Below, one piece after another: positions 19,086 through 52,469 of a DNA stretch of 64,000 nucleotides. Numbering within the stretch: position 1 is the first letter of the stretch; each line of letters begins with the position of its first letter. Source of the DNA: Candidatus Binatia bacterium (GTDB lineage: Bacteria; Desulfobacterota; Binatia; UBA1149; CAITLU01). Both the position numbers and the translations under genes were made by a program. The stretch spans positions 15,020 to 79,019 of the forward strand of contig DASPNH010000202.1 of NCBI GenBank assembly GCA_035626675.1, in the 5' to 3' direction. The notes under the pieces are model-generated. The model ran no database searches, was not told where the DNA came from, and worked only from the letters and a program-made list of their open reading frames with translations.

Positions 19086-19136
19086 GGGTCAGGCACCTTT
19101 TCCGGCAGCCGGAAAAGGTGCCTGACCCTTTTTTTT
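19086..19136. terminator. 21-bp perfect inverted repeat plus T8, a likely intrinsic terminator and member of the palindromic element family
   Basis: gggtcaggcaccttttccggc-a-gccggaaaaggtgcctgaccc followed by tttttttt, between convergent genes. Confidence 0.8.
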
Positions 19137-20145
19137 ACCGGCGGTGAGGCGAATAGACGCAGCAGGCGGGCGCGCATGGCCACGGCCGCGGACCGCGCGC
19201 TCCCAGGGTCGAGGTCGGCCGCCCCATGACATGGTCTTCGATCATGTCGACCAGCCCTGCTGCGAACCGCGGCGAGGCTCCGACGGCCTCGGCTCGAGCC
19301 AGGCGGATTCCGCATTCGGATGCGACCGCCGCGGCCTCGATGTCGAGATCGAACTTCACCTCCATGTGATCCGCGACGAAACCTATGGGCACCAGCACGA
19401 TCTCGCGCACGCCGTCCGAGGCCAAGGCGCGCAGGCGATCGCGGACGTCCGGCTCGAGCCACGGCTGCACGGCCGTCCCGCTGCGACTCTGATACACGAG
19501 CTCGTGAGCGAGCTCCGGCGCCGATCTGGCAGCAACGAGCGCGCAGGCTTCCTCGAGCTCCGCGACGTAGTCGGACGTGGTGGCCATTGCCGTGGGAATG
19601 GAATGCGCCGTGAAGAGCAGACGCACGCGTGGACGATTCGCATCGCCGAGCGAGGCCAGCGCGGCACGCGTATGCTCGGCCATGGTCTCGATGAAGCCGG
19701 GGTGGTTCCAATACGGTGCCAGCTTCTCGATGACCGGGGCGCCCTCTCCGACCACGGTGCGAGCGCGCTCGATGTCATCGAGATACTGGCGGCAGGCCGA
19801 ATAGGAGCTGTATGCCGAGGTGGCGATCGCGACCGCACGACCGATGCCGTCGCGCGCCATTTTCCGGACTGTATCTTCGAGAAACGGCGGCGCGTTGCGA
19901 TTGCCCCAGTAGACGGGCAGCGCGATGCCGCGCGCCTCGAGCTCGGCCTGCAGCGCCGCGATCAGCTTGCGACACTCCTCGTTGATGGGGCTGACGCCGC
20001 CGAACAGCATGTAGTGGGCGGCGACCTGCTCCAGGCGCTGGCGCGGAACGCCGCGCCCAGCCGTGACGCGCTCCAGAAACGGCATGACTTCGTCCGGGCC
20101 CTCGGGACCGCCGAAGGACAGCAGCAGGACGGCGTCGAAAGTCAT
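19135..20145 (-). CDS. hemH: Ferrochelatase (actinobacterial/coproporphyrin-type-like sequence)
   Basis: LLSFGGPEGPDEVMPFLERV, FGGVSPIN, LFTAHSIP, YQSRSG...PWLEPD, PIGFVADHMEVKFDLD. Start taken at MTFDAV. Confidence 0.9.
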   Translation of the reverse strand: MTFDAVLLLSFGGPEGPDEVMPFLERVTAGRGVPRQRLEQVAAHYMLFGGVSPINEECRKLIAALQAELEARGIALPVYWGNRNAPPFLEDTVRKMARDGIGRAVAIATSAYSSYSACRQYLDDIERARTVVGEGAPVIEKLAPYWNHPGFIETMAEHTRAALASLGDANRPRVRLLFTAHSIPTAMATTSDYVAELEEACALVAARSAPELAHELVYQSRSGTAVQPWLEPDVRDRLRALASDGVREIVLVPIGFVADHMEVKFDLDIEAAAVASECGIRLARAEAVGASPRFAAGLVDMIEDHVMGRPTSTLGARGPRPWPCAPACCVYSPHRR

Positions 20146-20201
20146 CGCGGCAGCACCCGATCCCATTGAACGAGCGCTGAGCGAAGCGCAAGCTGCCCCG
20201 C

Positions 20202-21224
20202 ATGCGACAGGTCTGGATTCCCAAAGCCGGTCCGCCCGAGGTTCTCGAAGTGCGCGAAGCGCCCGATCCGCAGCCGAAGGCCGGCGAGATCCGCGTTCGC
20301 GTCGAGGCCAGCGGAGTCAACTTCGCCGACATCATGGGCCGCCTCGGACTGTATCCCGATCTTCCGGCGATGCCGGTCGTGGTCGGCTACGAAGTCGGCG
20401 GCCGCGTCGACGCGGTCGGTGCCGGTGTCGATGCGAGCTGGAACGGACGCGACGTCTTCGCGATGACGCGCTTCGGCGGCTATTCCGACGTCGTCTGTGT
20501 TCCCGAGAACCAGGTGTTCGCGCGTCCGGGCGGCATGAGCGCCCAGCAAGGCGCCGCACTGCCCGTCAACTACTTCACGGCCTATCAGCTCGTCATCGTC
20601 ATGGGCGGCCTGCGCGCCGGCGAGACGATGCTCGTGCACTCGGCCGGAGGCGGCGTCGGCATCGCCGCCACCCAACTCGCCAAGCACATCGGGGCTACGG
20701 TGATCGGCACGGCCTCGCGCTCCAAGCACGAGCAGCTTGCCGCCATCGGCGTCGATCATCTCATCGACTATCGCACCGAGGACTTCGAGAAGCGTGCGCG
20801 CCAGATCACGGGCGGGCGCGGGGTCGAGCTCATCCTGGATGCCGTCGGCGGCGACTCGTTCAAGAAGGGCTACCGCCTGCTGGCGCCGACCGGGCGCCTG
20901 GGCATGTTCGGCATGTCGGCCGCCGCAAGTGGCAAGGAGCGCAGCATCGTCCGTGCGCTCAGGACGGTGGCAAGCATGCCGTGGCTGCAGTTCAATCCTC
21001 CCTCGCTGCTCAACGCCAACAAGGGCGTCTTCGGCGTCAACCTGGGTCACATGTGGGGAGAGGTCGCACGCCTGCGAGGCTGGGGCGAGCATCTGCTGGA
21101 GCTGTGGAAGCAGGGCGTGGTCAGGCCACACGTCGACGAGACCTTCCCGTTCGCGCAGGCGGCGGCAGCGCATCACTACATCCAGGACCGCAAGAATCTC
21201 GGCAAGGTGCTGCTGGTTCCGTGA
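20202..21224 (+). CDS. NADPH:quinone oxidoreductase / VAT-1-like MDR protein
   Basis: GVNFADIM, GYEVGG, HSAGGGVGIA, NLGKVLL. Confidence 0.85.
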   Translation: MRQVWIPKAGPPEVLEVREAPDPQPKAGEIRVRVEASGVNFADIMGRLGLYPDLPAMPVVVGYEVGGRVDAVGAGVDASWNGRDVFAMTRFGGYSDVVCVPENQVFARPGGMSAQQGAALPVNYFTAYQLVIVMGGLRAGETMLVHSAGGGVGIAATQLAKHIGATVIGTASRSKHEQLAAIGVDHLIDYRTEDFEKRARQITGGRGVELILDAVGGDSFKKGYRLLAPTGRLGMFGMSAAASGKERSIVRALRTVASMPWLQFNPPSLLNANKGVFGVNLGHMWGEVARLRGWGEHLLELWKQGVVRPHVDETFPFAQAAAAHHYIQDRKNLGKVLLVP

Positions 21225-21270
21225 TCGCCAGCGTCTTGTGACCGAAGCGGTTCCGCGCGACATTGCGCGC

Positions 21271-22449
21271 ATGAACGATCCGGTCGTCATCACGGGTTAC
21301 GCGCGCACTCCGATGGGCGGTTTTCTCGGCGATCTCTCCGCACTGCCCGCCACTCGCCTCGGGTCGGCTGCCATCGCGGCCGCACTGGAAAGGGCCTCGC
21401 TGCCCGGCGATGCCGTCGAGGAAGTGCTGATGGGCTGCGTGCTGCCTGCTGGACTCGGGCAGGCACCGGCGCGGCAGGCCGCACTCGGCGCGGGAATTCC
21501 GGCCAGTGCCGGCTGCACCACCGTCAACAAGATGTGCGGCTCGGGCATGCAGGCGGCGATCCTGGCGCACGACATCCTGGCGGCCGGAAGCCGCGACGTC
21601 ATCGTGGCCGGCGGCATGGAGAGCATGAGCAACGCGCCCTACCTGATGCCGAAGGCGCGCGCCGGCGCGCGCATGGGACATGCCGAGGTCAAGGACCACA
21701 TGTTCCTCGACGGTCTCGAGGATGCCTACGAGCAGGGACGCCTGATGGGCAGCTTTGCCGAGGAGACGGCCAGGCACTTCGGTTTCACCCGCGAGCAGCA
21801 GGACGCCTTCGCCGTCGAGTCGCTGATGCGCGCGCGCCGCGCCGGCCAGGGGGACTTCGATGCCGAGATCGTGCCGGTGACCGTCAAGACGCGCGGCGGC
21901 GAGCAGAGCATCGCCATCGATGAGCAGCCGGCCAAGGCATCGCCCGAAAAGATCCCGACGCTGCGACCCGCTTTCGCCAAGGACGGCACGGTGACGGCCG
22001 CCAATTCGAGCTCGATCTCCGACGGCGCCGCCGCGCTCGTGCTGATGCGGCGCAGCCAGGCACAGGCGCGCGGCTGCCCGGTCAGCGGCGTGATTCGTGC
22101 GCATGCGTTTCATGCGCAGGCGCCTGCCTGGTTCACGACGGCTCCGGTCGGCGCGATCCGCAAGGCGCTGGCTCGCGCAGGCTGGAGCGCCGATCAGGTC
22201 GACCTGTTCGAGATCAACGAGGCCTTCGCCGTGGTGACGATGGCGGCCATGCGCGAGCTGTCGCTCGACCATGATCGCGTCAACGTCAGCGGCGGCGCAT
22301 GTGCGCTGGGTCATCCCATCGGCGCATCCGGCGCCCGCATCGTGGCGACGTTGCTGTCGGCCCTGGCGCGCCGCGGGCTGAAGCGGGGCGTGGCCGCGCT
22401 GTGCATCGGCGGAGGCGAAGCCACCGCGCTGGCGGTGGAACGAGTCTGA
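21271..22449 (+). CDS. Acetyl-CoA C-acyltransferase (thiolase)
   Basis: NKMCGSG active-site Cys, [23 protein letters not shown]. Confidence 0.93.
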
Positions 22450-22615
22450 GGCCGATATCGCTGCGCCGACGCGCCGCAATCACCGCGGCCGAAAGGTGCG
22501 CCGTTTCGTCGTGGCCAGCTGCGCCGCGGGCGAGCGATTTCGGATCCGCGGCTGCGGTGGAGCGTTCGACGTTGCCGGCTATACTCGCGCGAGCCTGTCT
22601 TCCCGGAGGTACCCG

Positions 22616-23209
<594 letters not shown>

Positions 23210-23218
23210 TTTCGGAAT

Positions 23219-23273
23219 GGGGTCAGGTACTGAAAATCAGGGTGATGCACCCTGATTTTCAGTACCTGACCCC
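23219..23273. repeat. 26-bp perfect inverted repeat (palindromic element family)
   Basis: ggggtcaggtactgaaaatcagggtg-atg-caccctgattttcagtacctgacccc; a further half copy tctgacccc at about 23280-23288. Confidence 0.9.
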
Positions 23274-24685
23274 TTCTTGTCTGACCCCTGCTTCTTTCGA
23301 AGCAGCGGGCGGCCCGCGAGGATGACCTCGCGAATCTTCTCGGTGTCCTCGATTCGTGCGGTGGGATCGCCGTCGACCAGGACGAGGTCGGCGCGTTTGC
23401 CGGCATCGATCTCGCCGAAGTTGGCATCGCGGCCGGAGAGGAAGCGGGCGTTGTCGTAGGTCGCGGCGCGCAGCGCCTGGCCCGGCGACATGCCGGCCTC
23501 GACCAGCTTTCTCATCTCCAGATGCAGGCCTGCGCCGGGAATGTTTCCCGGATTGGCCGCGTCGCTGCCCGCAAGCACCGGCACACCCGCTGCCATCAGC
23601 TTGCCGACGTTGCGCCGTCGTATCTCCCACGCATCCGATGCCGCCTTCATGAACACCTTGGCTTCCGGTCTGGCCGGCGTCGCCAGCAGCAGCTCCACGA
23701 GCTCGTCCGATGCGACCTCGCGCTCGATGGGAAGGAAGTCTTCGATCTTCGTGCGCGGACGTCCGCCCAGATCCCATCCGGCGATGGTGGCCACGACCGG
23801 CGTCGGCTCGTGCGCCAGTGCCGCGACGGTTTCCTCGCTGAGCTCGTCGCGCCACGGCGAATGCGCCAGTGCGTCCGCACCGGCGCGCACCGCTGCCAGA
23901 GCTTCGGCCGAATCGCCGATGTGGACGATGGAGCGGATGCCGGAGGCGTGCCCGGCCTCGATGATGCCGGCAAGCGCCTCCTGCGAAAGGTTGGGAACGT
24001 CCCCGGCAGCGCCCACGTCGATGGTGATCTTGAGGATGTCGGGGCGATGCTCGAGCAGCTCGGCCACGGCCTCATGGGCATCCTGCGCACCGGCGATTTC
24101 GCGCGTCGCGCGCGGCAGCACGTACCAGCGCAGATACCACGGCAGCCACTCTCGCAGCACTTCGGCCGGATGACCGCCGTGCGCCGTAAAAACCGGACCG
24201 GCCGCGAACACGCGCGGGCCGAGCCGCTCGCCGCGTGCGATCTCGTCGCGCTGCTCGAAAATGGCCGGTGCGAGGCTGCCCAGATCCAGCACGGTGGTGA
24301 CGCCTGCGTAGAGAAAGGCCGCCAGGTTGGCGTCCAGGTCGGGCAGCGAGCCGGTCGCGCCGGGCGGATTCGACGACGAGCCGGTGTGGGTATGGGTGTC
24401 GACGAGGCCCGGCAGCAGAGTGCCGCCGCCGCCGTCCAGCTCGGGGGCGCCGCCCGAGTCCAGCCCGCATTCGCTTATCTTCTCGATGCGACCCTCGCGC
24501 ACGAGCACGTCCATCATGCCGTCGCTCAGACGCGCGCGCGGTGCATCGAAGACGCGAACGTTGCGGATCACGAGCGAGCCGGAGTGATCCTCTGGTAGCG
24601 ATACCAGGCGCTCGCCGCCTCGGCCGCAGCCGGCGACCAGCAGCACGAAGGCGGGTGCGAGAATGCGTAGGAGGGCAGATGCCAT
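23237..24685 (-). CDS. Amidohydrolase family lipoprotein (imidazolonepropionase-like)
   Basis: Start MASALL (24685) or MLVAV (24700); lipobox-like LVAGC; LLPGLVDTHTH, AGSDA, GKRADLVLVDGDP. The 1050-aa track ORF is an upstream antisense extension. Confidence 0.82.
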   Translation of the reverse strand: MASALLRILAPAFVLLVAGCGRGGERLVSLPEDHSGSLVIRNVRVFDAPRARLSDGMMDVLVREGRIEKISECGLDSGGAPELDGGGGTLLPGLVDTHTHTGSSSNPPGATGSLPDLDANLAAFLYAGVTTVLDLGSLAPAIFEQRDEIARGERLGPRVFAAGPVFTAHGGHPAEVLREWLPWYLRWYVLPRATREIAGAQDAHEAVAELLEHRPDILKITIDVGAAGDVPNLSQEALAGIIEAGHASGIRSIVHIGDSAEALAAVRAGADALAHSPWRDELSEETVAALAHEPTPVVATIAGWDLGGRPRTKIEDFLPIEREVASDELVELLLATPARPEAKVFMKAASDAWEIRRRNVGKLMAAGVPVLAGSDAANPGNIPGAGLHLEMRKLVEAGMSPGQALRAATYDNARFLSGRDANFGEIDAGKRADLVLVDGDPTARIEDTEKIREVILAGRPLLRKKQGSDKKGSGTENQGASP

Positions 24686-24734
24686 GACGGCAACTAGCAT
24701 CGCGGCCGCCGCCAATCCAGGCATCGCGGCCCGC

Positions 24735-24881
24735 GCGGACTCGTGTCGTGCCGGCGCGGCCACGTCTGGTGCGGACGCGGCCTCGTCCCGTGCGGACACG
24801 GCCTCGTCCCGTGCGGACACGGCCTCGTCTCGTGCTGGCGCGGACTCGTCTCGTGCCGGCGCGGACTCGTGTCGTGCGAGG
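24735..24881. repeat. Tandem repeat, 21-bp unit x7
   Basis: Units at 24735, 24756, 24777, 24798, 24819, 24840 and 24861; consensus (g/a)cgg(a/c)ctcgtNNcgtgc(cggc/ggac). Confidence 0.9.
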
Positions 24882-24934
24882 GCAACCCGACGCCGCAACT
24901 TCCTGTTTTCCACCGGCTGCGATTGAATCCACCG

Positions 24935-26221
24935 ATGCCCTCCGAGCAGGACCAGCCCCGCGGCGGCGACGTCGAGGAGCTTCTGGCGGCCGAGGACGCG
25001 ATCGCCGAAGCGCGCCGCCGCCGCATCGTCATCGCCGCCGGTGCGCTGGCGCTGGGAGCGGCGGTGTGGTGGGCGATGAGCTCCGACGACGACGACCAGC
25101 GCATCCGCTACGCGACCGAGCCGGTCATGCGTGGCAACCTCGTGGTCACGGTCAGCGCCACCGGCGCGCTTCAGCCGACCAATCAGGTCGAGATCGGCAG
25201 CGAGCTCTCGGGAATCGTCGACACCGTCGCGGTCGACCACAACGATCGCGTCAACAAGGGCCAGGTACTGGCGCGGCTGGACCTTTCCCGGCTCAACGCC
25301 GAAGCCCTGCAGTCGCAGGCCGAGCTCGACGTGGCCAGGGCCGGCCTTCAGGAACGCCGCGCCACCTTGGCGGAAGCCGAAGCGTCGCTGGCCCGCCTGA
25401 TCCAGGTCCGCAAGGCCAGCGGAGGCCGCGTTCCCTCCAGGCAGGAAATGGACAACGCCGAGGCGGCCGTCGCGCGCGGCCGCGCTGCCATCGCCAACTC
25501 GCAGGCGCAGATCGAGCTGGCACAGGCCAAGGTCGACTTCGCCAACACCAACCTTGCCAAGGCCGAGATCCGATCGCCGATCGACGGCGTGGTGCTGAGC
25601 CGCGCCGTCGAGCCGGGCCAGACCATCGCGGCATCGTTCCAGGCACCCAAGCTGTTCACGCTGGCCGAGAGCCTCGAGCAGATGGAGCTGGAGGTCGACG
25701 TCGACGAGGCCGACGTTGGTCAGGTTCGCGAAGGACAGAACGCGACGTTCACCGTCGACGCCTACCCCGACCGGCATTTCCCCGCGCGCATCACGCAGCT
25801 TCGCTACGCGTCCGAGACCGTCAACAACGTGGTCAGCTACAAGGCCGTACTCGAAGTCGACAACGACGATCTGGCGCTGCGACCCGGCATGACGGCAACC
25901 GCCGAGATCGTCGTCGCCACCGTCGACGACGCGGTGCTGGCTCCCAACGCGGCGCTGCGTTTCGTGCCGCCGCGCACGCGCGAGGACGATCGCAGCCTGC
26001 TGCAGAAGATCATCCCGTTCAGCCGCCGGCGCGGCGGCCCGCAAAAGAGCGAGGAGCCCGCGGGCAGGGAACGCACGGTCTACCGGCTCGAAGGCGGCGA
26101 GCCGGCGCCGGTCAAGATCACCATCGGCCTGACCGACGGCCGCCACACGCAGGTCGTCGAAGGCGAGGTGCGCGCCGACGAGAATCTGATCGTCGACGCC
26201 ACGATGCCGAAGGAACAGTGA
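24935..26221 (+). CDS. Efflux periplasmic adaptor subunit (MacA-like)
   Basis: N-terminal TM; VSATGALQP, IGSELSG, IRSPIDGVVL, VDVDEADVGQV, LRPGMTA. Confidence 0.9.
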   Translation: MPSEQDQPRGGDVEELLAAEDAIAEARRRRIVIAAGALALGAAVWWAMSSDDDDQRIRYATEPVMRGNLVVTVSATGALQPTNQVEIGSELSGIVDTVAVDHNDRVNKGQVLARLDLSRLNAEALQSQAELDVARAGLQERRATLAEAEASLARLIQVRKASGGRVPSRQEMDNAEAAVARGRAAIANSQAQIELAQAKVDFANTNLAKAEIRSPIDGVVLSRAVEPGQTIAASFQAPKLFTLAESLEQMELEVDVDEADVGQVREGQNATFTVDAYPDRHFPARITQLRYASETVNNVVSYKAVLEVDNDDLALRPGMTATAEIVVATVDDAVLAPNAALRFVPPRTREDDRSLLQKIIPFSRRRGGPQKSEEPAGRERTVYRLEGGEPAPVKITIGLTDGRHTQVVEGEVRADENLIVDATMPKEQ

Positions 26222-27009
26222 GCGGCGCGGCGGCAGACGGCGGCGTGCGCGGTGCGGGCACCCGCGGAGTCGGGCAGCGCGATGTCGACGATGCTGCGCG
26301 GCAGGCGACCGGTCGCGGCGACGGCCCGCTGATCCAGCTGCGCGCGGTGCGCAAGGTCTACGGCAGCGGCCAGGCGGCGATGCATGCACTGCGCGGCGTC
26401 GACCTCGACATCCATCGCGGCGAGTTCGTGGCGGTGATGGGGCCGAGCGGCTCGGGCAAATCGACCTGCATGAACATCGTCGGCTGTCTGGATACCCCGA
26501 GCGGCGGCAGCTATCGCTTCCGCGGCGTCGAGGTCACCACGCTGACGCGGCGCCAGCGCGCACTGCTGCGCCGCTTCTGGCTCGGCTTCGTGTTCCAGGG
26601 GTTCAACCTGCTGCCGCGCACGACGGCGGTCGAGAACGTCGAGCTGCCGCTGATGTACCGCGGCACGCGGCCGCGCGAGCGGCGCGCCGCTGCGCTGGCG
26701 GCGCTGGCCGAAGTGGGGCTGACCGGCTGGGAGACGCACACTCCGGGCGAGCTGTCGGGCGGACAGCAGCAGCGCGTGGCGATCGCGCGCGCCATCGTCA
26801 CCAAGCCTTCCCTGCTGCTTGCCGACGAGCCCACGGGCAATCTCGACTCGGCCCGCAGCGTCGAGATCATGGAGCTGCTCGGCCGCTTCAATCGCGATGC
26901 GGGAATCACCGTGGTCATGGTCACGCACGAGCCGGACATGGCACGGTACGCGCGCCGTATCGTGCACTTCACCGACGGCCTGGTTTCCTCGGACGAGGCC
27001 CGCCACTGA
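26218..27009 (+). CDS. ABC transporter ATP-binding protein (MacB/LolD-like)
   Basis: GTG overlaps the upstream stop; Walker [34 protein letters not shown]. Confidence 0.92.
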
Positions 27010-28217: not shown

Positions 28218-28328
28218 CGGCGTACCTGACCCGCTGTGTGCGACGCGCGCGATATGCAGCATGAGTAGCCGCTTCGTACCCCACGCAACTGCGAGTGCGG
28301 CGGCGGCGATCCATCGGAGCGCCGCCGC

Positions 28329-29873
28329 ATGAGCAGGCGCCTGGCATGTCTTGCCGCACTGTGCGCGCTGGCGGCCGGCTGCTTCAAGGTCGGTCCCGAC
28401 TATCGCGAGCCTCTGGTGCCTGCACTGTCGCGATGGAACGCGCCGCTGGAGCGCGGGCTCGAGCCGGGAGCGCGGGATCTCGCGCACTGGTGGCGTCTTC
28501 TCGGCGACCCGATGCTCGACTCGCTGATCGAGCGAGCGATCGCTCGCAACACCGACATCGCGCGTGCGACGGCAGCCGCGCTCGAGGCTCGTGCGCGGCG
28601 CACCGGCTCGATCGCATCGCTCTTTCCCGCCGCCGACGTCGATGCCGGCTACCGCAGGCAGAAGCGCACGGGCAGCTTCGGATCGTTCAGCAACGCGGAC
28701 GACGGCAGCGGATCGACCGGCGGCGGCAGCACGGGAGCGACGAACGCCTGGTCGGCGGGCTTCGATGCGAGCTGGGAGATCGATCTGTTCGGCGGCGTGC
28801 GTCGCGGCATCGAGGAGAGCCAGGCGACGCTGGAGGCCGCGCGCGCGGATCTGCGCGACGTCCTGGTGACGGTGCTGGCCGAGGTCGCACGCAACTACGT
28901 CGAGCTGCGCTCGCTGCAGGAACGAATCGCCATCGCCCACGCCAACGCGGAGAGCCAGGGCGAGACGCTGCAGCTGACGCGCTGGCGTTTCGAGGCAGGA
29001 CTGGTCGGCGATCTGGACGTGCAGCAGGCGACGTATCAGCTCTCGCAAACGCGGGCCGGCATCCCGACGCTGGAGAGCGAGCTCGCGCAGATCGGTCATC
29101 GCCTTGCCGTGCTGCTCGGAGCTCCGGCCGGATCGCTCGATGCCGAGCTCGCCCCGCGCGGCCCGGTGCCCGAACCGCCTGCGCGCGTCGCCGTCGGAGT
29201 TCCGGCCGATCTGCTGCGCCGCCGCCCGGATGTTGCGGCGGCCGAGCGCCGGCTCGCCTCGGCGACCGCGGCCATCGGCGTGGCCACGGCCGACCTGTAT
29301 CCGAAGCTGTCGCTGACCGGATCGCTCGAGCTGTCGGCGACGTCGCTGAGCGGGCTCGACGACGACAGCGCCCGCGGCTACGGCATCGGCCCGAGCCTGC
29401 GCTGGAATCTCTTCGATGCCGGTCGCATCCGGGCCGAGATCGCCGCGCGCTCGGCGCAGGCCGATCAGGCGCTGGCTGACTACGAGGCGGCCGTGCTGGC
29501 CGCGTACGAGGAAGCCGAGAACGCGCTCGTCGCATTCGCACGCGAGCAGGTCCGCCGCGATCGCCTGGCGCACGCGGTCGGTGCTGCGCGCGACGCGGAA
29601 AGGCTCGCGCGCTTCCAGTACGAGAACGGCGTGATCGACTTCCAGTCGGTGCTCGAGGCGCAGCGCGCGCGGCTCGGGCTGGAAGAGTCGCTGGCGATCA
29701 GCCACGCCGCCGTCACCACCAATCTGGTGGCGCTGTACAAGGCACTCGGCGGCGGATGGGAACGCGTCCAGCCGCCGCCGGTGACATCGCCCGTCGTGCA
29801 GGAGGACGCACCACGCGCGCGCGATGCGCCGTCGTCGCCTGGCGCGGGAGAAGTCAGTACACGAACGGAATGA
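28329..29873 (+). CDS. Efflux outer-membrane lipoprotein (TolC/NodT family)
   Basis: Lipobox [40 protein letters not shown]. Confidence 0.92.
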
Positions 29874-31521: not shown

Positions 31522-31578
31522 TCTCGAGGGCATGCCCTTCGAGCGCTCGCATCGCCCGCGACGGAAGCTCCGTCGCGG

Positions 31579-41015: not shown

Positions 41016-41043
41016 CTGAGAGGACGCGGCACCAGGCCGCAAA

Positions 41044-41072: not shown

Positions 41073-41077
41073 ATGGT

Positions 41078-41506: not shown

Positions 41507-41730
41507 CGGTCGCGATCCTCGCGAACCAGCTCGGTGCTGTCGCCGAGGGGTCCGGGCAGCGTGGCGCTGAGGCGCTCGGCCGCCTGGCGGAACTGGGATG
41601 CGGAACCGCGAGCGGCCCGCTCGAGCACGACCTTGAGCTCGGCCTGCAACGACCGGTTATGCGCCTTGGCCCGGCCCTTCAGGGCCTGCAGGACCTCGGC
41701 ATCGATTCCGCGGATCAGGACGTTCGGCAT
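41503..41730 (-). CDS. FitA-like ribbon-helix-helix antitoxin
   Basis: MPNVLIRGIDAEVLQALKGRAKAHNRSLQAELKVVLE...DSTELVREDRDR; 4-nt overlap with vapC. Confidence 0.88.
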   Translation of the reverse strand: MPNVLIRGIDAEVLQALKGRAKAHNRSLQAELKVVLERAARGSASQFRQAAERLSATLPGPLGDSTELVREDRDR

Positions 41731-41839
41731 TGGACCACCACGCGCTTTCATTTCGATATCGATCTCTGGCGCAAGTCTATCGCCGTGAGGGCCGCCGGCC
41801 CAAAACCATCGCTGTCATGATTCTTTGGCGGTGCGCGGG

Positions 41840-41873
41840 ACAATGTGAGACGGCCGCGAGACATTGTGATACA
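41840..41873. promoter_or_regulatory. Putative binding sites for the sigma-54 activator, upstream of the kinase operon
   Basis: Minus strand TGTATCA-caa-TGTCTCG-cggcc-GTCTCA, the same arrangement as at 45552-45568; also an acaatgt/acattgt inverted repeat. Confidence 0.55.
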
Positions 41874-41909
41874 CCCCCACCGATGCTCCGAAGCCGAGCT
41901 AGGCAAGTG

Positions 41910-43697: not shown

Positions 43698-43707
43698 AGG
43701 GGAACGC

Positions 43708-45441
<1,734 letters not shown>

Positions 45442-45551
45442 TCGCTGCGGCGGCGCGAGCTCGAAGCCAAAGCGTGGTGCGTTGACGCCTGATGACGCCG
45501 CGGCGCTGACGGCGCGGGCTCCGTTCGTTGAGCCTCCGAACAGCCTCACGC

Positions 45552-45612
45552 TGTCTCAAAGTGTCTCGCCGATAAGTCGCCGAGACAGCCACGATACACG
45601 TTCGCTGAGACA
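45552..45612. promoter_or_regulatory. Upstream activating sequences (enhancer) for a sigma-54 promoter
   Basis: TGTCTCA 45552, TGTCTCG 45562, CGAGACA 45581, CGATACA 45592, TGAGACA 45606; 45562/45581 form a perfect 7-bp IR with a 12-nt spacer. Confidence 0.65.
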
Positions 45613-45642
45613 TCACTCCGTCGAGGCGGCCAGCTTGGCAGC

Positions 45643-45655
45643 CAAACAGCTGATT
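45643..45655 (-). promoter_or_regulatory. IHF-like binding site
   Basis: Minus strand AATCAGCTGTTTG fits WATCARNNNNTTR, lies between the UAS and the promoter, and has an adjacent A/T tract. Confidence 0.5.
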
Positions 45656-45692
45656 TTGCAGCAGTTTATTATTCGGGAGCTGCGAGCCGGCT

Positions 45693-45708
45693 CGGCACGA
45701 CAAATGCT
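45693..45708 (+). promoter_or_regulatory. Sigma-54 (RpoN) -24/-12 promoter
   Basis: CGGCACGACAAATGCT: GG at 45694-45695 and GC at 45706-45707 (GG-N10-GC); predicted +1 near 45719-45720. Confidence 0.7.
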
Positions 45709-45718
45709 CTAGAGCTAT

Positions 45719-45995
45719 CAGCGGCGAGGCCGCCAGGAGAAACGAGGGAGAGGGAACGGAGCGCGTGCACGGCGCGCTCCGAAGGATCAACGCAACGAAA
45801 CGAACAGGACTCTGAGCCGTAGGACCAGTCCCCCAACGCTACGGCTCACGTCCGCACTCACTCCCCCCGGGGGGCTGCGGACAGTGAGGCCCGGCGCTCC
45901 AAGGCCAGAGGGGCGCCGGGCGCTTCCCACAAGCTGAGGGGACAGGCACCGGCTACCCGCAATAGCCGGACCGCCTGTCCCCTTTCGCATTTTTA
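45719..45995 (+). ncRNA. Candidate sigma-54-dependent regulatory small RNA
   Basis: Starts at the predicted RpoN TSS; six hairpins separated by GGA- and A-rich single strands; ends in a hairpin plus T-rich tract; no convincing ORF. Confidence 0.55.
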
Positions 45996-46013
45996 AGGGG
46001 ACGGTCCCCTTAA
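45993..46013. repeat. Palindrome ttaaggggac-g-gtccccttaa (palindromic element family)
   Basis: Perfect 10-bp arms; preceded by the related hairpin aggggacaggc...gcctgtcccct (45937-45983). Confidence 0.8.
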
Positions 46014-46114
46014 GACTCACGCTTCTCCGTGTGCAACTTGGCAACCTCCATGCGGCTCGCATGCTGCGCAACCTCGCTTTTGCTTTTGATGCCGGAGCGT
46101 TCGAGGCACGCGCC

Positions 46115-46959
46115 ATGAAGCACACCCGCCATACGATGCGGACGCGCAAGGACGGTCAGCCGTTCGTTCTCGTCGATTCGCCGCGCCCGCACGTCCGCCT
46201 CATCACCCTGAACAATCCCGAGCGCATGAACGCGATGTCCTTCGACCTGGTCGGCTCGCTGTACGCAGCACTGCAGGAGGTCGCCAACGACAACGACTGC
46301 TGGGTCGCAGTGCTGACGGGTACCGGCCGAGGCTTCTGCTCGGGCATGGATCTGACGGACGTCGGGATGCCGCCGGGCAGCGACAACCTTCCAATCTCGC
46401 GCATCGCGACGCGCGCGATGGCCTTCATGTCGGATATCGTGCCGGCCATGCGTGCGATTCCCCAGCCGCTGATCTGCGCAGTCAACGGCGCGGCCATCGG
46501 CGGCGGAATGTGCCTGCCGCTCGGTGCGGACATCCGCATCACCTCGCGCTCGGCGACGTTTCGCGGCGCCGGCATCAACAACGGGCTCACCGGAACCGAG
46601 TGCGGCGTGAGCTTTCTGCTGCCGCGGCTGATCGGTGCGTCGCGCGCGAACGAGATCATTCTCTCGGGGCGCGAGGTTACGGCCGAAGAAGCGCAGGGCA
46701 TCGGGCTGGTCTCGCGCGTCGTCGACGACGAGGAACTGGTTTCTGCGAGCTGCGCTCTGGCTGAGCAGATGTGCGGCTACAGCCCACACGGCTTGGCCAT
46801 GACCAAGGAAGTGCTTTGGGCGAACCTGGAGAAGGCAGCCTTCAAGCGGCGATCGATCTGGAGAACCGCAACCAGCTGCTGGTTCGCATGACGACGCAGA
46901 ACCTCGACGAAGCGATACGCGCGCGCCGCGAAAAGCGACCGCCGGTCTATGAGGATTGA
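46115..46959 (+). pseudogene. Enoyl-CoA hydratase/isomerase with a 1-bp frameshift near 46832 (pseudogene or sequence error); start uncertain
   Basis: ITLNNPERMNAM, FCSGMDL, AVNGAAIGGG, GLVSRVV in frame 46031. The expected C-terminus GSLQAAIDLENRNQLL...EKRPPVYED continues in another frame to 46959. Confidence 0.8.
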
Positions 46960-47119
46960 GGTATCAGGAAGCTTCCGCTCGATGCTATCCGTGAACGCGT
47001 GACCAACAACACTGATCTGTTAGGCCGAAGTGGCACGCAACTGTCTGCTTGTCGCAGCCGGCGCCGCACTGCTAAGGTCGAACGAGTCGCCGCAGACGTA
47101 GCAGAAGGATGGCAGCTAT

Positions 47120-48814
47120 ATGGAGGCCGGGAAACGTAACATTACCGACATCTTCAACCGCGCTCGGACTTTGGAGATTCCGTTCTTCCAGCGGTCGTAC
47201 GTGTGGTCGGAAAGGAACTGGCAGCGGTTCCTCGACGACATGAAACAGACAGCATCGAGCGGCAGACCGTACTTCCTTGGATCTGTGATCCAAAAACAGC
47301 GCCCGACCAGTACTGGATCGAAAATTGGCGATGCGCGGCGCGTAATCGACGGACAGCAACGGCTGACCACGCTTGTGCTGTTCTTCAACACGCTCTGCCG
47401 GGTCCACAACCGCCTCGACCTTTTCGACACCACCTTTCGCGACTTCGAGGGGAGGCTCATCCTGCAGCATAACCACGCGGACATCGAGCCCTTCGAAGCT
47501 GCCCTGGAGAGTCGCCTAACGTCAGACGTGAAGGCGCAGTATCGTGGCAGCCGCATCATAGCGGCGCACGATTACTTCGAGAACAAACGAAACGTTCTCG
47601 AAGGAATTTCCCCGCTTTCGCTGCTACAGCTCGTATATTTCGTAGGCATCGACCTCGGGTCCGACGAGGATGAGCAACAGATATTCGACACGCTGAACTC
47701 TCTCGGCGTCGCGCTTAGCACCGCCGAACTTCTCAAGAATGAGCTCTTCAAACGCGACGACGTCCACTTTTATCGCGAAACCTGGCGAAAAGTTTTTGAG
47801 CACGATGCACCGACTCGTAAGTATTGGGACGAGAAGGTAACCGCGGGTAGGACCCGTCGTGGCATGGTGGACGTCTTTCTGCAGAGTTTCCTCATGATGC
47901 AGGACGACGTCGGCGAAGAACTGCGCGTAGACCGCTTGTTCGAGGAGTACAAGCAGCACCTCGCTTGCAGTGGGACGGACCGCAACGCTTTCATCACTGA
48001 GCTGACAAGGACCGCCGTCCTTTTCCGCGAGAACGTACGGGCGAACGTCCTGGAAGAGGAGTTGGATCGTAACATCGGAGTGGACAGGCTGAACGTCCTG
48101 CTTTTCGGACTCAATACGACGACGGTGCTGCCTTACGCGCTGTATGTTTTGAAAACGGTTCCCGACCGCGCGGAGCGTGAAAAGATGTTCCGGCTGATCG
48201 AGAACTATCTCATTCGACGCCTCGTCTGCCGGGAGACGACGAAAAACTACAACAACCTCTTTTCGAGCTTCATGCGAGCCCGACTGAACTCTTGCGACTC
48301 CTTGGCCGGCAGGCTCGCAAAGACGACGGATCCGACGGTGCGCATACCTACCGACGAGGAATTTGTTCGTGGGTTCGTCGAAAACAACCTGAGCAATGGC
48401 CAGGCAAAAATCCTTCTCTATATGCTCGAGCGCTCTATTCGTAATGACGAACGGCAGAGCACCGCACTGATGGGAGCGTCGCGCTACTCTTTAGAGCACC
48501 TCATGCCAAAGAAGTGGCGCAATCATTGGGGTACGCTGCCCGCAGAGGAAGCGCACCGACGCGATCAAGCGCTTCGCAAGCTGGGGAACCTTTCACTATT
48601 GTCAACGAAGCTGAACACGTCGATCCGCGACGGGGCGTGGGAGATAAAGAAGAACGGAAGCAAGGGGCGTCACGGCCTGCAACATTACGCGAGCAGTTTA
48701 GAGACGCTTGCGCCGTACTTGTCACGATCCGTATGGGACGATTCCGCGATCTACGAGCGCGGCCGTTGGCTCGCGGAGCAAGCGCTGCGCGTGTGGCCTT
48801 TCCCTTCGCTCTGA
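47120..48814 (+). CDS. DUF262 + DUF1524 (HNH) protein, GmrSD-like modification-dependent restriction endonuclease
   Basis: IPFFQRSYVW, IDGQQRLTT, IFDTLNSLG, SLEHLMP...LGNLSLLSTKLN. Lower GC (45-58% in two sampled lines versus 70% in a flanking line). Confidence 0.85.
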   Translation: MEAGKRNITDIFNRARTLEIPFFQRSYVWSERNWQRFLDDMKQTASSGRPYFLGSVIQKQRPTSTGSKIGDARRVIDGQQRLTTLVLFFNTLCRVHNRLDLFDTTFRDFEGRLILQHNHADIEPFEAALESRLTSDVKAQYRGSRIIAAHDYFENKRNVLEGISPLSLLQLVYFVGIDLGSDEDEQQIFDTLNSLGVALSTAELLKNELFKRDDVHFYRETWRKVFEHDAPTRKYWDEKVTAGRTRRGMVDVFLQSFLMMQDDVGEELRVDRLFEEYKQHLACSGTDRNAFITELTRTAVLFRENVRANVLEEELDRNIGVDRLNVLLFGLNTTTVLPYALYVLKTVPDRAEREKMFRLIENYLIRRLVCRETTKNYNNLFSSFMRARLNSCDSLAGRLAKTTDPTVRIPTDEEFVRGFVENNLSNGQAKILLYMLERSIRNDERQSTALMGASRYSLEHLMPKKWRNHWGTLPAEEAHRRDQALRKLGNLSLLSTKLNTSIRDGAWEIKKNGSKGRHGLQHYASSLETLAPYLSRSVWDDSAIYERGRWLAEQALRVWPFPSL

Positions 48815-48911
48815 CGTCCGCCTGCCGCTCCACCATCACTTCGGGCCGCTTGGGCCACATCTGGCACGCGCAAGCGGCGCTCCAGCTCCGTCTATGAAGA
48901 CGGAAACGGCG

Positions 48912-49319
48912 TCAGGCACCTTTTTCACCGGCGAGTCCGGCGATTAGCGTCTGAACTTGCGCTGAGTCGAAGTACTCGTCGAGACGCGTGATGCGTCCAC
49001 ATTCCACCTTGCAGACGACGCAGGCGGGCAGCTCGAAGGAAGCGCCCTTGTTCGAGACGGCAGTCAGCACGTGCTGCTGGACGAACCCGCCTTCGAACGC
49101 CGCGAGACGGCTGACCTCGTAACGCCGCTCTCGGCTGGCCGCGATGAACGCGCCCAGCGTTGCGAGGTTCTCGTCCACAGGCTGCGCGATGCCGTCGTGG
49201 TTGTGCCAGACCACCGCGCCGGGCGCATAGATCGAGGCGATGGTCGCGACGTCGCCGCTTTCGATGGCGGCGAAGAATCGGCGGGCGAGGGTGAGAGTTT
49301 CGGTGGTCGAATCGGGCAT
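48912..49319 (-). CDS. SnoaL/NTF2-like protein
   Basis: FFAAIESGD, YAPGAVVWHN, GFVQQHVL, ITRLDEYFDS. Confidence 0.85.
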   Translation of the reverse strand: MPDSTTETLTLARRFFAAIESGDVATIASIYAPGAVVWHNHDGIAQPVDENLATLGAFIAASRERRYEVSRLAAFEGGFVQQHVLTAVSNKGASFELPACVVCKVECGRITRLDEYFDSAQVQTLIAGLAGEKGA

Positions 49320-49404
49320 GGCGCGATCCTAGGCGGCTGTCGCGAAATGTCAGATGCGGATTCTGCACTGGAACACAGGGCCAGCGGCGTACCGAGGAAC
49401 ACCC

Positions 49405-49490
49405 GCGACCCGCACGACCTGCGACCCGCACGACCTGCGACCCGCACGACCTGCGGCCCGCACGACCTGCGGCCCGCACGACCTGCGGCC
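49405..49490. repeat. Tandem repeat, 16-bp unit x5.4
   Basis: gcgacccgcacgacct x3, then gcggcccgcacgacct x2 and a partial copy; between divergent genes. Confidence 0.93.
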
Positions 49491-49569
49491 GCCGCGCCCA
49501 CGACCACCACAAAGGTATACCGCCAGTATACTCTTGCACGCGCCTGTAATCAGGCGTACGGTCCGGCCC

Positions 49570-50196
49570 GTGTCCACCGCCGCCTCGCTGACCCCGACCC
49601 GCCGTGAGCGCCGCAAGCTCGAGGTGCGCGCGCGCATCGTCGAGGCGGCGCGCCAGCTCTTCGAGACGCGCGGGGTCACGGCCACCACCGTCGCCGACAT
49701 CTGCGAGCACGCCGACGTCGCGCACAAGACGTTCTTCAACCACTTCCCGGCCAAGCAGGACGTGGTGAGGGCGATGGCCGCCGAGTCCATCCAGATCCTG
49801 CTCGAGGAAATCGAGACCGCTCGGCGTGAGGGCCGCACCACGAGCGAGCGCCTGCTTCGCTTCTTTGATGGCATCGCCAAACGTGCCGGCCAAGCCGGCC
49901 CCATGCAGCGCGACGTCCTGACCGAGATCATCCACGCGGCGCAGCAGTCGCCGCAGGAGCCCGAGCACGCGCGCCGGCTGCACGAGGCGTTCGGCGCGCT
50001 CGTGCGCGACGGGGTCAAGGCCGGCGACGTCACCCGGCGCCACAGCGTGCAGACGCTGACCGAGATGATCCTGGGCGCCTACTACGTCCTGATGTTCGAC
50101 TGGGCCAACCTCGACGACTACCCCATCGCACGGCGTGCCCGCGCCGCTGCCCGCTTTCTGGCCGACGCGCTGTCGCCGCGGCCCGAGGAGACCTGA
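49570..50196 (+). CDS. TetR/AcrR family transcriptional regulator
   Basis: GTG start; RRERRKLEVRARI, TTVADICEHADVAHKTFFNHFPAKQD. Confidence 0.88.
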   Translation: MSTAASLTPTRRERRKLEVRARIVEAARQLFETRGVTATTVADICEHADVAHKTFFNHFPAKQDVVRAMAAESIQILLEEIETARREGRTTSERLLRFFDGIAKRAGQAGPMQRDVLTEIIHAAQQSPQEPEHARRLHEAFGALVRDGVKAGDVTRRHSVQTLTEMILGAYYVLMFDWANLDDYPIARRARAAARFLADALSPRPEET

Positions 50197-50197
50197 C

Positions 50198-51145
50198 ATG
50201 GCAAAACGCGAGCTCGAGCATACGCGTCTTCCCATCCCCAACGGCTGGTTCGCCGTGGCCTGGTCCAAGGACGTCATCGCTGGCGGCGTCAAATCGATCC
50301 ACTACTTCGACGAGGAGATGGTGCTGTTCCGCACGCGCAGCGGCGAGGCACGCGTGGTCGATGCGTACTGCGTTCATCTCGGCGCGCACCTCGGCGAAGG
50401 CGGGCGCGTGGTCGGAGATTCCCTTCGTTGCCCGTTCCACGGCTGGACTTTCGACGGGCAGACCGGCGCCTGCGTCAACATTCCGTACTGCGATCGCATC
50501 CCGGCCAAAGCTGCCGTTCGCGCGTGGCCGGTGCAGGAGAAGAACGGGATGATCTTCGTCTGGCACGACGAGAAGGGGCGCGAGCCGCATTGGGATTTCC
50601 CACTGCTTCCCGAGATCGGCCATCCCGACTGGTCCGAGCCGCGCACGTTCGACCTGGAGGTGCCGGTACACGTGCAGGACATGCACGAGAACAACAACGA
50701 CCCAGTGCACTTCCAGTTCGTGCACGGAGCGGTCGAGCCCCTGCCCTCCGACATCTCCTACGACAGCGACGGCCGCGCCTATCGCATCACCAGCGTCACC
50801 GAGCGCGCCACGCCGACGGGTACTTTCACGACACAGCTGGTGCGCGACTCGTGGGGAATCGGCCTGTCGGCCGTGCGCACGGAAGGGATTCCGCAGGCCG
50901 GGCTCCTGATGTTCTCCTCGACGACGCCGATCACCGCCGAGCGCACGCACTCGCGATGGCTGCTGACGGCCACCAACAACATGGTCGATCTCGCCGGCGA
51001 GGATTTCATGAACGGCCTGACCAGCGGCGTCATGCAGGACATGCGTATCTGGTCGAACAAGGTGCACCGCGCACGCCCGATGCTGTGCGAAGCCGACACC
51101 TACCTCGCCGAGTTCCGGCAGTGGGTGAAACAGTTCTACGTCTGA
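50198..51145 (+). CDS. Rieske non-heme iron oxygenase, KshA/Neverland-like
   Basis: CVHLGAHL...CPFH; ENNNDPVHFQFVH; DMRIWSNK...FRQWVKQFY. Confidence 0.88.
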   Translation: MAKRELEHTRLPIPNGWFAVAWSKDVIAGGVKSIHYFDEEMVLFRTRSGEARVVDAYCVHLGAHLGEGGRVVGDSLRCPFHGWTFDGQTGACVNIPYCDRIPAKAAVRAWPVQEKNGMIFVWHDEKGREPHWDFPLLPEIGHPDWSEPRTFDLEVPVHVQDMHENNNDPVHFQFVHGAVEPLPSDISYDSDGRAYRITSVTERATPTGTFTTQLVRDSWGIGLSAVRTEGIPQAGLLMFSSTTPITAERTHSRWLLTATNNMVDLAGEDFMNGLTSGVMQDMRIWSNKVHRARPMLCEADTYLAEFRQWVKQFYV

Positions 51146-51146
51146 T

Positions 51147-51201
51147 GGGGTCAGGTACTGAAAGTGCGGTTGCCGCAACCGCACTTTCAGTACCTGTCCC
51201 C
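51147..51201. repeat. 27-bp inverted repeat with 1 mismatch (palindromic element family)
   Basis: ggggtcaggtactgaaagtgcggttgc-c-gcaaccgcactttcagtacctgtcccc, 2 nt after the Rieske stop. Confidence 0.9.
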
Positions 51202-51224
51202 GCTCTTTCTTCCGGAGCGGAAGC

Positions 51225-52469
51225 ATGGATCGTCATCTCGTCGTTTCCTCCGACTGCCACGCCGGTCTTCCGGCTGCGCAGTATCGCGAATATCTGGACC
51301 CGCAGTATCGCGAGGTCTTCGACGTGGCGCTGCCCATCCAGATCTCGGAGATGGAGCGCATGTCGAAGATGTTCCTGATCTCCGACATCAACGCGCAGTG
51401 GCGCAAGGGTCGCGAAGTCGATCTTGCCGGCGCTTGGGACAGCGACGTGCGCCTTCGCGTTCTCGAGGCCGACGGCATCGCCGCCGAGATCATCTTTCCC
51501 GACGGCATCACCGAGATGAACACGCCGCCTTTCGGCGCCGGCCTATCCCTTCCCGTCGAGGACCGCATCGTGCCCGAGCTGCAGTGGGCCGGGGCGCGCG
51601 CGCACAATCGCTGGCTGGCCGAGTTCGTCGCGATGCAGCCGAAGCGCCGCGTCGGCGTGGCGCTGTGTCCCGCACTGTGGGACGTGGACGAGGCCGTGCG
51701 CGAGGTCGAATGGTGCGCCAGGAACGGCCTTCGCGGTATCCTTCTACCGTGCCTGTGGGGCCGCCTGGATGCGTATCATCATCCGAAGTTCGATCCGCTG
51801 TGGTCGGCGTGCGAGGACAATGACGTCGTCGTGCACTTCCATTCCGGCGCGGCGCCGATGGAGGACGCGTTCGGTCCCATCGCCTCTCCCGACGGCGTGC
51901 ACCGTCCCGGCGCCATGGGCATCTACATCTCCGAGGTCGTCTGGTGGTGCGCGCGTCCCCTGACGTTCCTGATCTGGGGCGGCGTGCTGGAGCGCCATCC
52001 GCGTCTGCGCGTCGCCGTCACCGAAGGCACCACGATCTGGGTGCCCGAGTATCTGACCCTTCTCGACCAGCGCTATGAGGAGACGCACTACTCGGCCAAG
52101 CTCGGCGACTACCGCAGTCACCTCTCGATGAAACCGAGCGAGTACTTCGCGCGGCACATCGCCATGGGCGCCTCGTGCATGCCCAGACGCGAGGCCGAGA
52201 TGCGCCATCGCATCGGCCTGCCCAGCATCATGTGGGGCAGCGACTTCCCGCATCCCGAAGGTTCGTGGCCGTACACCCGCGATCAGATGATCGAAACGTT
52301 TCGCGGCCTGCCCGAAGACGAGGTCGTCGCGATGCTCGGCGGCAACGCGGTGCGCTTCTACGGCCTCGACGCCGCCGCGCTCGAGCCCGTCGCCGCGCGC
52401 ATTGGCCCCGAGAAACACTGGTTCCGCGGAGAGCTGCCGCCTGACCGCATAAGGGGACTGTCCCCTTAA
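51225..52469 (+). CDS. Amidohydrolase family 2 protein
   Basis: ISSDCHAG-like start VSSDCHAG, YDPLW-like FDPLWSAC, HFHSG, MWGSDFPHPEG. Confidence 0.85.
   Translation: MDRHLVVSSDCHAGLPAAQYREYLDPQYREVFDVALPIQISEMERMSKMFLISDINAQWRKGREVDLAGAWDSDVRLRVLEADGIAAEIIFPDGITEMNTPPFGAGLSLPVEDRIVPELQWAGARAHNRWLAEFVAMQPKRRVGVALCPALWDVDEAVREVEWCARNGLRGILLPCLWGRLDAYHHPKFDPLWSACEDNDVVVHFHSGAAPMEDAFGPIASPDGVHRPGAMGIYISEVVWWCARPLTFLIWGGVLERHPRLRVAVTEGTTIWVPEYLTLLDQRYEETHYSAKLGDYRSHLSMKPSEYFARHIAMGASCMPRREAEMRHRIGLPSIMWGSDFPHPEGSWPYTRDQMIETFRGLPEDEVVAMLGGNAVRFYGLDAAALEPVAARIGPEKHWFRGELPPDRIRGLSP
52450..52468. repeat. Palindrome taaggggac-t-gtcccctta overlapping the amidohydrolase stop
   Basis: Perfect 9-bp arms; same core as 45993-46013. 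Confidence 0.75.

Follow-up and report, generated by a model that had tools for sequence, protein, structure and literature searches.

Repetitive extragenic palindromic (REP) sequences, and the hairpins formed by their inverted doublets (REPINs), are non-autonomous repeats spread by REP-associated tyrosine transposases (RAYTs). In the insertion sequence (IS) IS608, the left- and right-end hairpins stand in direct orientation on one strand. The 16-mers flanking RAYT genes are themselves repetitive, occurring 57 and 140 times in groups 2 and 3, the RAYT groups associated with REPs (PMC5581495), and mirrored compensatory changes in the arms of REPINs have been reported by Bertels and Rainey (PMC3116915). 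REP termini have been described to supply stop codons and to overlap open reading frames (ORFs), and some RAYT-like genes are flanked by terminal inverted repeats (TIRs) rather than by REPs (PMC3733652). Here we describe dispersed palindromes in a 64,000-nt stretch (C202:15020-79019; hereafter the window, to which coordinates without a contig name refer) of a 5.45-Mb, 250-contig assembly of 66.7% GC from the uncultured phylum Binatota, labelled G000, and compare them with a genome of the same genus, G001 (the congener). The palindromes headed by GGGGTCAGG, which comprise families A and B below, are probably REP/REPIN-type non-autonomous repeats served by a RAYT, an HUH tyrosine transposase with an IS200-like fold. 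They are a new example of known selfish DNA in a new host lineage, rather than ordinary terminators.

Three dispersed repeat families

A preliminary description of the window had assigned the palindromes to a single family with conserved termini and called for a genome-wide motif search. The search found hundreds of copies, and the sequences fall into three families rather than one, designated A, B and C. The motifs GGGGTCAGGTAC and GGGGTCAGGCAC gave 103 and 100 strand-hits in G000, compared with 0 and 2 in a reversed-sequence control, while GGGGACNGTCCCC occurred at 150 sites and, with one mismatch allowed, at 186 (6 in the control). Searching for the head with two mismatches was too noisy (735 matches vs 396 in the control), and stricter head definitions were used instead.

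Family A has the consensus AAAAGGGGTCAGGCACCTTTTC(CGGCAGCCG)GAAAAGGTGCCTGACCCCTTTT and occupies about 119 loci, as 48 hairpins of 35-47 nt with two recognisable arms and 71 single or decayed arms; A4/T4 feet are present at 77-88% of its ends. Family B is built from the 27-nt unit GGGGTCAGGTACTGAAAACGCGGTTTT, found as 37 direct doublets, 24 inverted hairpins (most of them 53-56 nt), 33 singles and a few arrays of 3-5 units. The direct doublet has the consensus (G)GAAC-unit-GGGGTCAGGT(AC/CG/GC)TGAA, followed by unique DNA. B heads on the same strand are spaced by 27 nt in 43 of 46 cases, and a 37-mer covering both heads occurs in 19 exact copies. The module common to A and B consists of a conserved head, GGGGTCAGG(T/C)AC, and a variable tail; in family B the head contains the mini-hairpin TCAG-GTA-CTGA. 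These modules appear in four arrangements: direct 27-nt doublets, short tandem arrays, inverted pairs that fold, and decayed single arms. Family C is the palindrome TTAAGGGGAC[A/T]GTCCCCTTAA, with 150 exact cores in G000.

The copies and remnants in the window are as follows; no strand is assigned to palindromic elements.

19086-19128, no strand: family A hairpin, GGGTCAGGCACCTTTTCCGGC A GCCGGAAAAGGTGCCTGACCC; 21/21 nt paired; -41.9 kcal/mol, z -9.6
23219-23273, no strand: family B inverted hairpin, one B unit and its inverse; 26/26 paired; -53.5 kcal/mol, z -12.2
23281-23288, minus strand: CTGACCCC, possible remnant of a further head; 8 nt only, not distinguishable from chance
28222-28232, minus strand: GTACCTGACCC, head-like remnant; 11 nt, too short to separate from chance
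45937-45983, no strand: imperfect A-like hairpin, a family A variant with head variant GGGGACAGGCACC; -34.6 kcal/mol, z -6.8
45993-46013, no strand: family C palindrome TTAAGGGGACGGTCCCCTTAA with the core GGGGAC-N-GTCCCC; an enoyl-CoA hydratase gene starts 18 nt downstream
48908-48934, plus strand: decayed family A left arm GGCGTCAGGCACCTTTTTC, right arm missing; still recognisable as an A arm
51147-51201, no strand: family B inverted hairpin; 27-nt arms with one mismatch (96%); -50.0 kcal/mol, z -11.5
52449-52469, no strand: family C palindrome (T)TAAGGGGACTGTCCCCTTAA, with the core GGGGAC-N-GTCCCC at 52450-52468

Each palindrome and inverted repeat first described in the window was found again at its position. 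For the hairpins at 19086, 23219, 51147 and 45937, folded as RNA, none of 200 shuffles was as stable. Among the supposed half copies, the one at 48908-48934 stands as a decayed A arm, while those at 23281-23288 and 28222-28232 are too short to be assigned.

Some copies resemble miniature inverted-repeat transposable elements (MITEs), with doublets at both ends of 120-170 bp of filler (C61:3815-4026, C222:13970-14196). Inverted doublet pairs lying far apart (C174:19803/21928; C210:51285/53982) were considered as cargo transposons and rejected, as they enclose ordinary host genes and represent independent insertions at convergent gene ends. The GGAAC preceding the head was likewise rejected as an IS608-style target: GGAAC is missing from both G001 junctions that were examined and looks like the tail of the unit, so it is more likely part of the element.

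The RAYT gene and its flanking doublets

The window was said to contain no mobiliser gene; the candidate lies on another contig.

C189:18319-19161 (L001 1450-2302), outside the window: RAYT gene; Pfam Y1_Tnp 46 bits, NCBIfam REP_Tyr_transpos 91.4 bits

A Pfam Y1_Tnp search of the whole 5.45-Mb assembly gave this one match (C189:18360-18680). The protein exceeds the cut-off of the REP_Tyr_transpos model (80 bits) and scores 24.2 bits on the transpos_IS200 model, below the cut-off of 55 bits. Its only relative in the PDB is E. coli TnpA_REP (4ER8, 23 bits), with which the HYH (HUH) and YIALNPV motifs align. Inward-pointing B doublets bracket the gene at C189:18039-18093 (+) and 19200-19254 (-), so that the genome's single Y1_Tnp gene carries the motif, inverted, on both sides, an arrangement that the preliminary description had proposed to look for. 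Both neighbours, a TlpA-like gene and a P450, extend into the outermost B units, and a strong terminator, CGCCCGATCGCC..GGCGATCGGGCGG-T10, lies between the left doublet and the RAYT gene. The RAYT is the only gene seen between matching repeat ends, although a systematic search for DDE transposases was not made. The flanking 16-mer GGGGTCAGGTACTGAA occurs 82 times in G000 and is absent from the reversed control and from 40 relatives; its copy number falls between the published values of 57 and 140 (PMC5581495).

Relative to a 287-aa homologue, the RAYT changes frame after about residue 181, which leaves the catalytic domain whole and places the helix-turn-helix (HTH)-like C-terminal region in another frame. 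The predicted G000 product is 211 aa long. A metagenome scan with the 37-nt doublet returned 13 contigs, all from one sample, and the one examined (L042) contains an identical RAYT locus including the frameshift; these contigs probably represent the source assembly itself rather than independent data. An exact-protein search for a near-identical strain found none on record.

Distribution in related genomes

A RAYT homologue is present in 20 of 41 related genomes (best, 57% identical), and none was found in the same-genus G001. The homologues, among them an intact 287-aa protein of G032, are 287-328 aa long with an HTH-like C-terminal region. Of the eight homologues in other Binatia that are closest to the C189 RAYT, seven (L003-L008, L020) have the motif GGGGTCARRT next to them, and its strand is as expected in every case with sequence on both sides, compared with a chance expectation that we estimate at about 0.03 matches per locus; none of the fetched homologues at greater distance (identity of about 40% or below) has it. 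Inverted repeat flanks also occur at L003, L006 and L007. The flanking repeat in G007, G005 and G022 is GGGGTCAAGTCGCGGCTTGCGAC, the head followed by a proper hairpin, and three direct 23-nt units stand next to the homologue in G033.

The amplified sequences differ between genomes. In G000, the 16-mers of families A and B and the 17-mer of family C occur 66, 82 and 134 times, respectively; G001 has none of them, and any of 40 relatives has at most two sites. Conversely, the relatives' variant GGGGTCAARTCGCGGC occurs 103 times in G007, 61 in G003, 24 in G022 and 17 in G005, all four of which carry a RAYT homologue, with 4 copies in G029, 1 in G004 and none in G000 or G001. Amplification in G000, near-absence from relatives and a class-wide head beside RAYT genes together indicate that the family is lineage-specific and tied to the RAYT. 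In G032, which gives 17 RAYT homologue matches, the copy examined (L003 1134-2085) is tightly bounded by 30-nt inverted repeats starting GGGGTCAGGTCT, and from this layout the RAYT clade in that genome appears to behave like an insertion sequence.

Orthologous sites in the congener

Contig C31 of G001 runs collinear with the window, with an identity of about 85%, and the element is missing from it at all six comparable sites (19086, 23219, 45937, 45993, 51147 and 52450). At the 19086 site, G001 has its own unrelated terminator, GGACGCCGGCAATGCCGGCGTCC-T7. At the 23219 site, the amidohydrolase tail reads ..RKKQGSDKKGSGTENQGASP in G000 vs ..VPLTRTPHR in G001, each followed by the stop, and at the 51147 site the Rieske oxygenase gene of G000 is four codons shorter than its orthologue. 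These differences in gene ends indicate that arrival of the elements remodelled the 3' ends of genes. About 60 nt at 45866-45925, including a hairpin GCCCGGCGC..GCGCCGGGC, are near-identical in G001 (against the regional average of about 85%), and homology ends abruptly before the A-like hairpin; the stems downstream of 45930 are repeat insertions, separate from this conserved block. At the RAYT cassette, synteny with G001 stops at the left junction.

Position relative to genes

Genome-wide, 85-90% of copies are extragenic, compared with about 16% of random positions, and divergent spacers are depleted of B copies, holding 5 of 76 intergenic ones (25% expected). From a stop codon to the outer head of the B doublet the median distance is 6 nt, and 16 of 37 outer heads lie no more than 15 nt past a stop, compared with 64 of 3,000 random intergenic points (2%); the inner side has no stop-codon bias (median 85 nt). 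Hairpin ends fall within 15 nt of a stop in 32 of 96 cases for family A and 16 of 48 for family B. For family C, 14 genes stop at the TAA of the proximal TTAA foot, and five continue across the entire palindrome and stop at the distal TAA. We also observed, at C174:21826-23931 (-), a UvrD/PcrA-like helicase ORF that reads through an entire B doublet and gains about 35 repeat-derived residues (..RRGSGTENAVLGSGAEKRTPRR..) before its stop.

The same placement is seen in the window, where the genes flanking the elements were confirmed by Pfam. The 19086-19128 hairpin is followed by T8 (19129-19136), is scored as terminator-like, and sits between the convergent gene 18356-19048 (+) and a ferrochelatase gene (19135-20166, -), whose stop is within the T-run. 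The 23219-23273 hairpin, with GGAAT/CTTCT feet, begins 10 nt beyond the stop of a Cu/Zn superoxide dismutase gene (+) and holds the final 13 codons and stop of a minus-strand amidohydrolase, whose protein ends in ..KKGSGTENQGASP. The hairpin at 51147 starts 1 nt past the stop of a Rieske/KshA-like oxygenase gene, and ends 23 nt before the ATG of the next gene. Within the decayed arm at 48908-48934, TCA forms the TGA stop of a minus-strand SnoaL-like gene (ending GEKGA), and an Amidohydro_2 gene reads through the 52449-52469 palindrome (ending RGLSP) to stop at the distal TAA, with the ribosome-binding site of the next gene directly after. The claim that elements overlap or abut stops and add C-terminal residues was thus borne out on Pfam-verified genes for all three of these protein ends.

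Proposed mechanism and strength of the RAYT assignment

By analogy with E. coli TnpA_REP and IS608, we propose that the RAYT would bind the head and hairpin on single-stranded DNA, cut at the foot of the hairpin, and re-join the strand elsewhere. Only copies whose arms still pair would be good substrates, so that the lineages still present would carry mirrored differences. The fixed 27-nt register points to gain or loss of units head to head. Copies persist almost exclusively in extragenic DNA, as a rule no more than about 15 nt past a stop, where they often replace the last codons, supply the stop and add C-terminal tails.

A non-autonomous REP-like family moved by a RAYT is what the preliminary description had suggested, and the hundreds of copies, the flanked RAYT and the element-free congener all agree with it. 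Several points weigh against this assignment. The comparison of filled and empty sites showed G001 to be element-free overall and at six of six sites, but gave no readable clean empty sites or target duplications there, because the spacers are too diverged to align at about 85% identity; nor was a transposition event or excision footprint seen. The G000 head has neither of the tags that define the GTAG and CGTC REP super-families (PMC3733652). A single B unit forms just 4-5-bp hairpins (TCAG-GTA-CTGA, AAAAC-GCG-GTTTT), and does not constitute a 20-40-nt imperfect palindrome with an unpaired GTAG/CGTC tag. Untagged REP-like families do exist (PMC3733652), so the tag criterion defines two super-families and not REPs as such. 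No family A copies flank the RAYT gene, and the link between A and the RAYT consists of the shared 9-12-nt head. The frameshift may mean that the enzyme, as read from the assembly, is dead or truncated. G000 is a 92%-complete, 250-contig metagenome-assembled genome (MAG), which makes 'single copy' and 'absent' provisional, and the position statistics come from a crude self-trained codon-usage gene caller (3,744 genes).

The frameshift also bears on a different timing of events, in which the repeats are fossil MITE-like debris. The heads would then be the terminal repeats of an IS200-like RAYT cassette that once multiplied and, its transposase being frameshifted, is now immobile, with the copies left as neutral or co-opted hairpins. 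The 17 RAYT matches of G032, at least one of them bounded by 30-nt terminal inverted repeats, represent IS-like behaviour of this kind, and the MITE-like copies with doublets at both ends and the many decayed arms (71 A singles, 33 B singles) fit as well. Against this, the 19 exact 37-mers and 150 exact C cores argue for recent spread, and the catalytic domain is intact, the E. coli enzyme (165 aa) working without a C-terminal HTH. We consider a purely fossil family somewhat unlikely; in any case it would be a variant of the REP/REPIN assignment in the timing of activity and not another kind of element.

Mirrored changes in the hairpin arms

The two B hairpins of the window had been described as sharing outer ends around unrelated inner stems. 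Aligned, the cores AAAATCAGGGTG and AAAGTGCGGTTG have the same base at 8 of 12 positions and, judged by this alignment, are homologous; each of the four differing positions is mirrored in the opposite arm. Across five hairpin length classes, 13 mirrored, pair-preserving changes were counted, compared with about 1.3 expected if arms mutated independently. One-sided changes genome-wide comprised 54 that break a pair and 19 that leave G-T. Point mutation in a population in which replication continues only for paired copies would be expected to produce such a pattern.

An alternative is that paired but divergent cores are made mechanically, one arm being copied from the other by fold-back or template-switch synthesis or by gene conversion within the palindrome. 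The fully mirrored differences between the two window copies, the roughly tenfold excess of mirrored changes over the independent expectation, and the resemblance of B hairpin arms to single-unit variants also present in direct doublets would be compatible with such copying. The proposal that arms are homogenised or re-templated is nevertheless not needed, since one-sided changes, pair-breaking (54) or leaving G-T (19), outnumber mirrored ones (13), and compensatory changes are a published property of REPINs, described without re-templating (PMC3116915). We found no direct evidence for arm copying, and regard it as improbable.

Terminator-like features of family A

The layout of an intrinsic terminator (GC-rich stem, U-tract, downstream of a gene) is found in family A only. 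Given its A4/T4 feet, family A most likely doubles as a bidirectional intrinsic terminator, a function predicted from its layout. Terminators would be expected to have site-specific sequences conserved with their genes; these repeats are near-identical at many loci and absent at the congener sites. That the palindromes are ordinary, vertically conserved intrinsic terminators or protein-binding operators, alike through a shared job, is very improbable: the GC-rich A stem between A4 and T4 is called terminator-like, copies lie downstream of genes and the congener has a normal terminator in the 19086 spacer, but sequences of 35-56 nt are near-identical at dozens to 150 loci, yet missing from the congener and all but missing from 39 further relatives, the RAYT in G000 and homologues elsewhere are flanked by one and the same head, families B and C lack a U-tract, and terminator function is compatible with a mobile repeat rather than an alternative to it.

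Family C and a second RAYT type

Family C doublets are often 23 or 26 nt apart and strongly polarised: nearly all have A as the central base of the first copy and T as that of the second, and the reverse order is rare; the pairs are thus inverted. Examples of such polarised doublets are:

C6:26434/26457, polarised C doublet
C12:37892/37915, polarised C doublet

The exact family C 21-mer was found at 23 loci in other genomes, and a RAYT adjoins at two of them. In L068 (a Ca. Binatia MAG), doublets resembling family C flank a 187-aa RAYT on each side, and in L051 (a Thermoleophilaceae MAG), a RAYT has two family C copies immediately upstream. The L068 protein shares about 35% identity with the C189 RAYT and has no closer copy in G000, where tblastn with this second RAYT type returned the same C189 locus only. 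Beside the Binatia RAYT homologues fetched, family C gave no match. On these sequence associations, family C appears to be a separate REP family, going with a shorter RAYT type absent from the G000 assembly. In G000 it is an orphan, either cross-served by the C189 RAYT, or with its own RAYT missing from the bin or lost.

Copies of different families are often separated by 15-30 nt, in five cases A with C and in one B with C, and form mosaics resembling bacterial interspersed mosaic elements (BIMEs):

C6:133-198, mixed-family site
C14:2598-2678, mixed-family site
C86:1321-1393, mixed-family site
C162:10129-10196, mixed-family site
C72:18150-18211, mixed-family site
window 45937-46013, mixed-family site

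Such neighbours could reflect a shared site preference or insertion beside existing hairpins.

Other features of the window

An Rfam scan of the window at the gathering threshold returned a tRNA only. At 28220-28363, a G000-specific stretch of about 110 nt separates two genes whose stop and start abut in G001 (..CATGAGTAG). It contains CATGAGTAG, CATGAGTAG and CATGAGCAG in series, together with the 11-nt head-like remnant, and may be a duplication of the gene junction. The spacer at 26224-26325 is about 100 nt in G000 vs about 24 nt in G001, and the extra DNA has no repeat-family match.

Implications and comparison with known systems

The palindromes reveal no new kind of system. They add Binatota, an uncultured phylum, to the hosts of the REP/REPIN-RAYT partnership; the head matches neither catalogued tag, the RAYT clade is a longer one, and the direct doublet is unusual as the commonest form. 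Because the GGGGTCA head is shared across the class while every RAYT orthologue goes with an amplified repeat of its own, the class offers a comparative series for RAYT recognition. For annotation, several hundred gene ends of G000, with their stops, short C-terminal tails and apparent terminators, are repeat-derived, and spacers resembling structured RNAs may be repeat insertions.

A bolder proposal, which we think unlikely, is that GGGGTCA-headed repeats form a third REP super-family beside GTAG and CGTC, served by a long (about 290-330 aa), HTH-bearing RAYT clade widespread in Binatia. Its minimal unit would be the 27-nt direct doublet, a cargo-less left/right-end pair in the style of IS200/IS605, with insertion actively aimed just after stops and not simply tolerated at such places. 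If so, unit-wise cutting and joining would generate 27-nt tandem arrays, and the element would systematically rewrite gene 3' ends, stop codons and terminators.

Among described systems, terminators share with family A a GC-rich stem, flanking A/T runs and a place a few nucleotides after stops; unlike rho-independent terminators, family A is dispersed, near-identical, private to one species, and has a head in common with transposase-flanking repeats. IS200/IS605 elements encode a transposase of the same fold as the C189 RAYT, and the two heads of the B doublet are direct on one strand, like the left- and right-end hairpins of IS608. The C189 RAYT differs in falling below the cut-off of the IS200 model and above that of the RAYT model, and in gene flanks that are inverted, not direct.

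The GTAG and CGTC super-families (Di Nocera et al. 2013, PMC3733652) likewise consist of small palindromes and dimers close to or overlapping ORFs, with termini that supply stops; unlike theirs, the GGGG head itself base-pairs with its inverse in the hairpin forms. E. coli REP/BIME elements and TnpA_REP (RayT/YafM, PDB 4ER8; PMC3479197) are similar in the HUH and Y-x-x-x-NPV motifs, which align, and in having a hairpin with a conserved 5' motif, a location at gene 3' ends, and arrays. The E. coli system differs by its unpaired GTAG tag, alternating orientations and an enzyme without the C-terminal extension, and its similarity to the C189 RAYT is 23 bits.

In the REPIN-RAYT system of Pseudomonas fluorescens SBW25 (PMC3116915; PMC5581495), a single-copy RAYT is flanked by the repeat and the flanking 16-mer occurs tens of times, as in G000. 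There too, the long hairpins made by inverted doublets have invariant ends and a middle that varies with compensating changes, and copies are extragenic and lineage-specific. Unlike SBW25, G000 has the head GGGGTCAGG, which is not that of a Pseudomonas REP, in a Binatota host; direct doublets at a constant 27-nt spacing, rather than inverted ones, are its commonest B form; and homologues of its RAYT reach 287-328 aa with the HTH-like C-terminal region.

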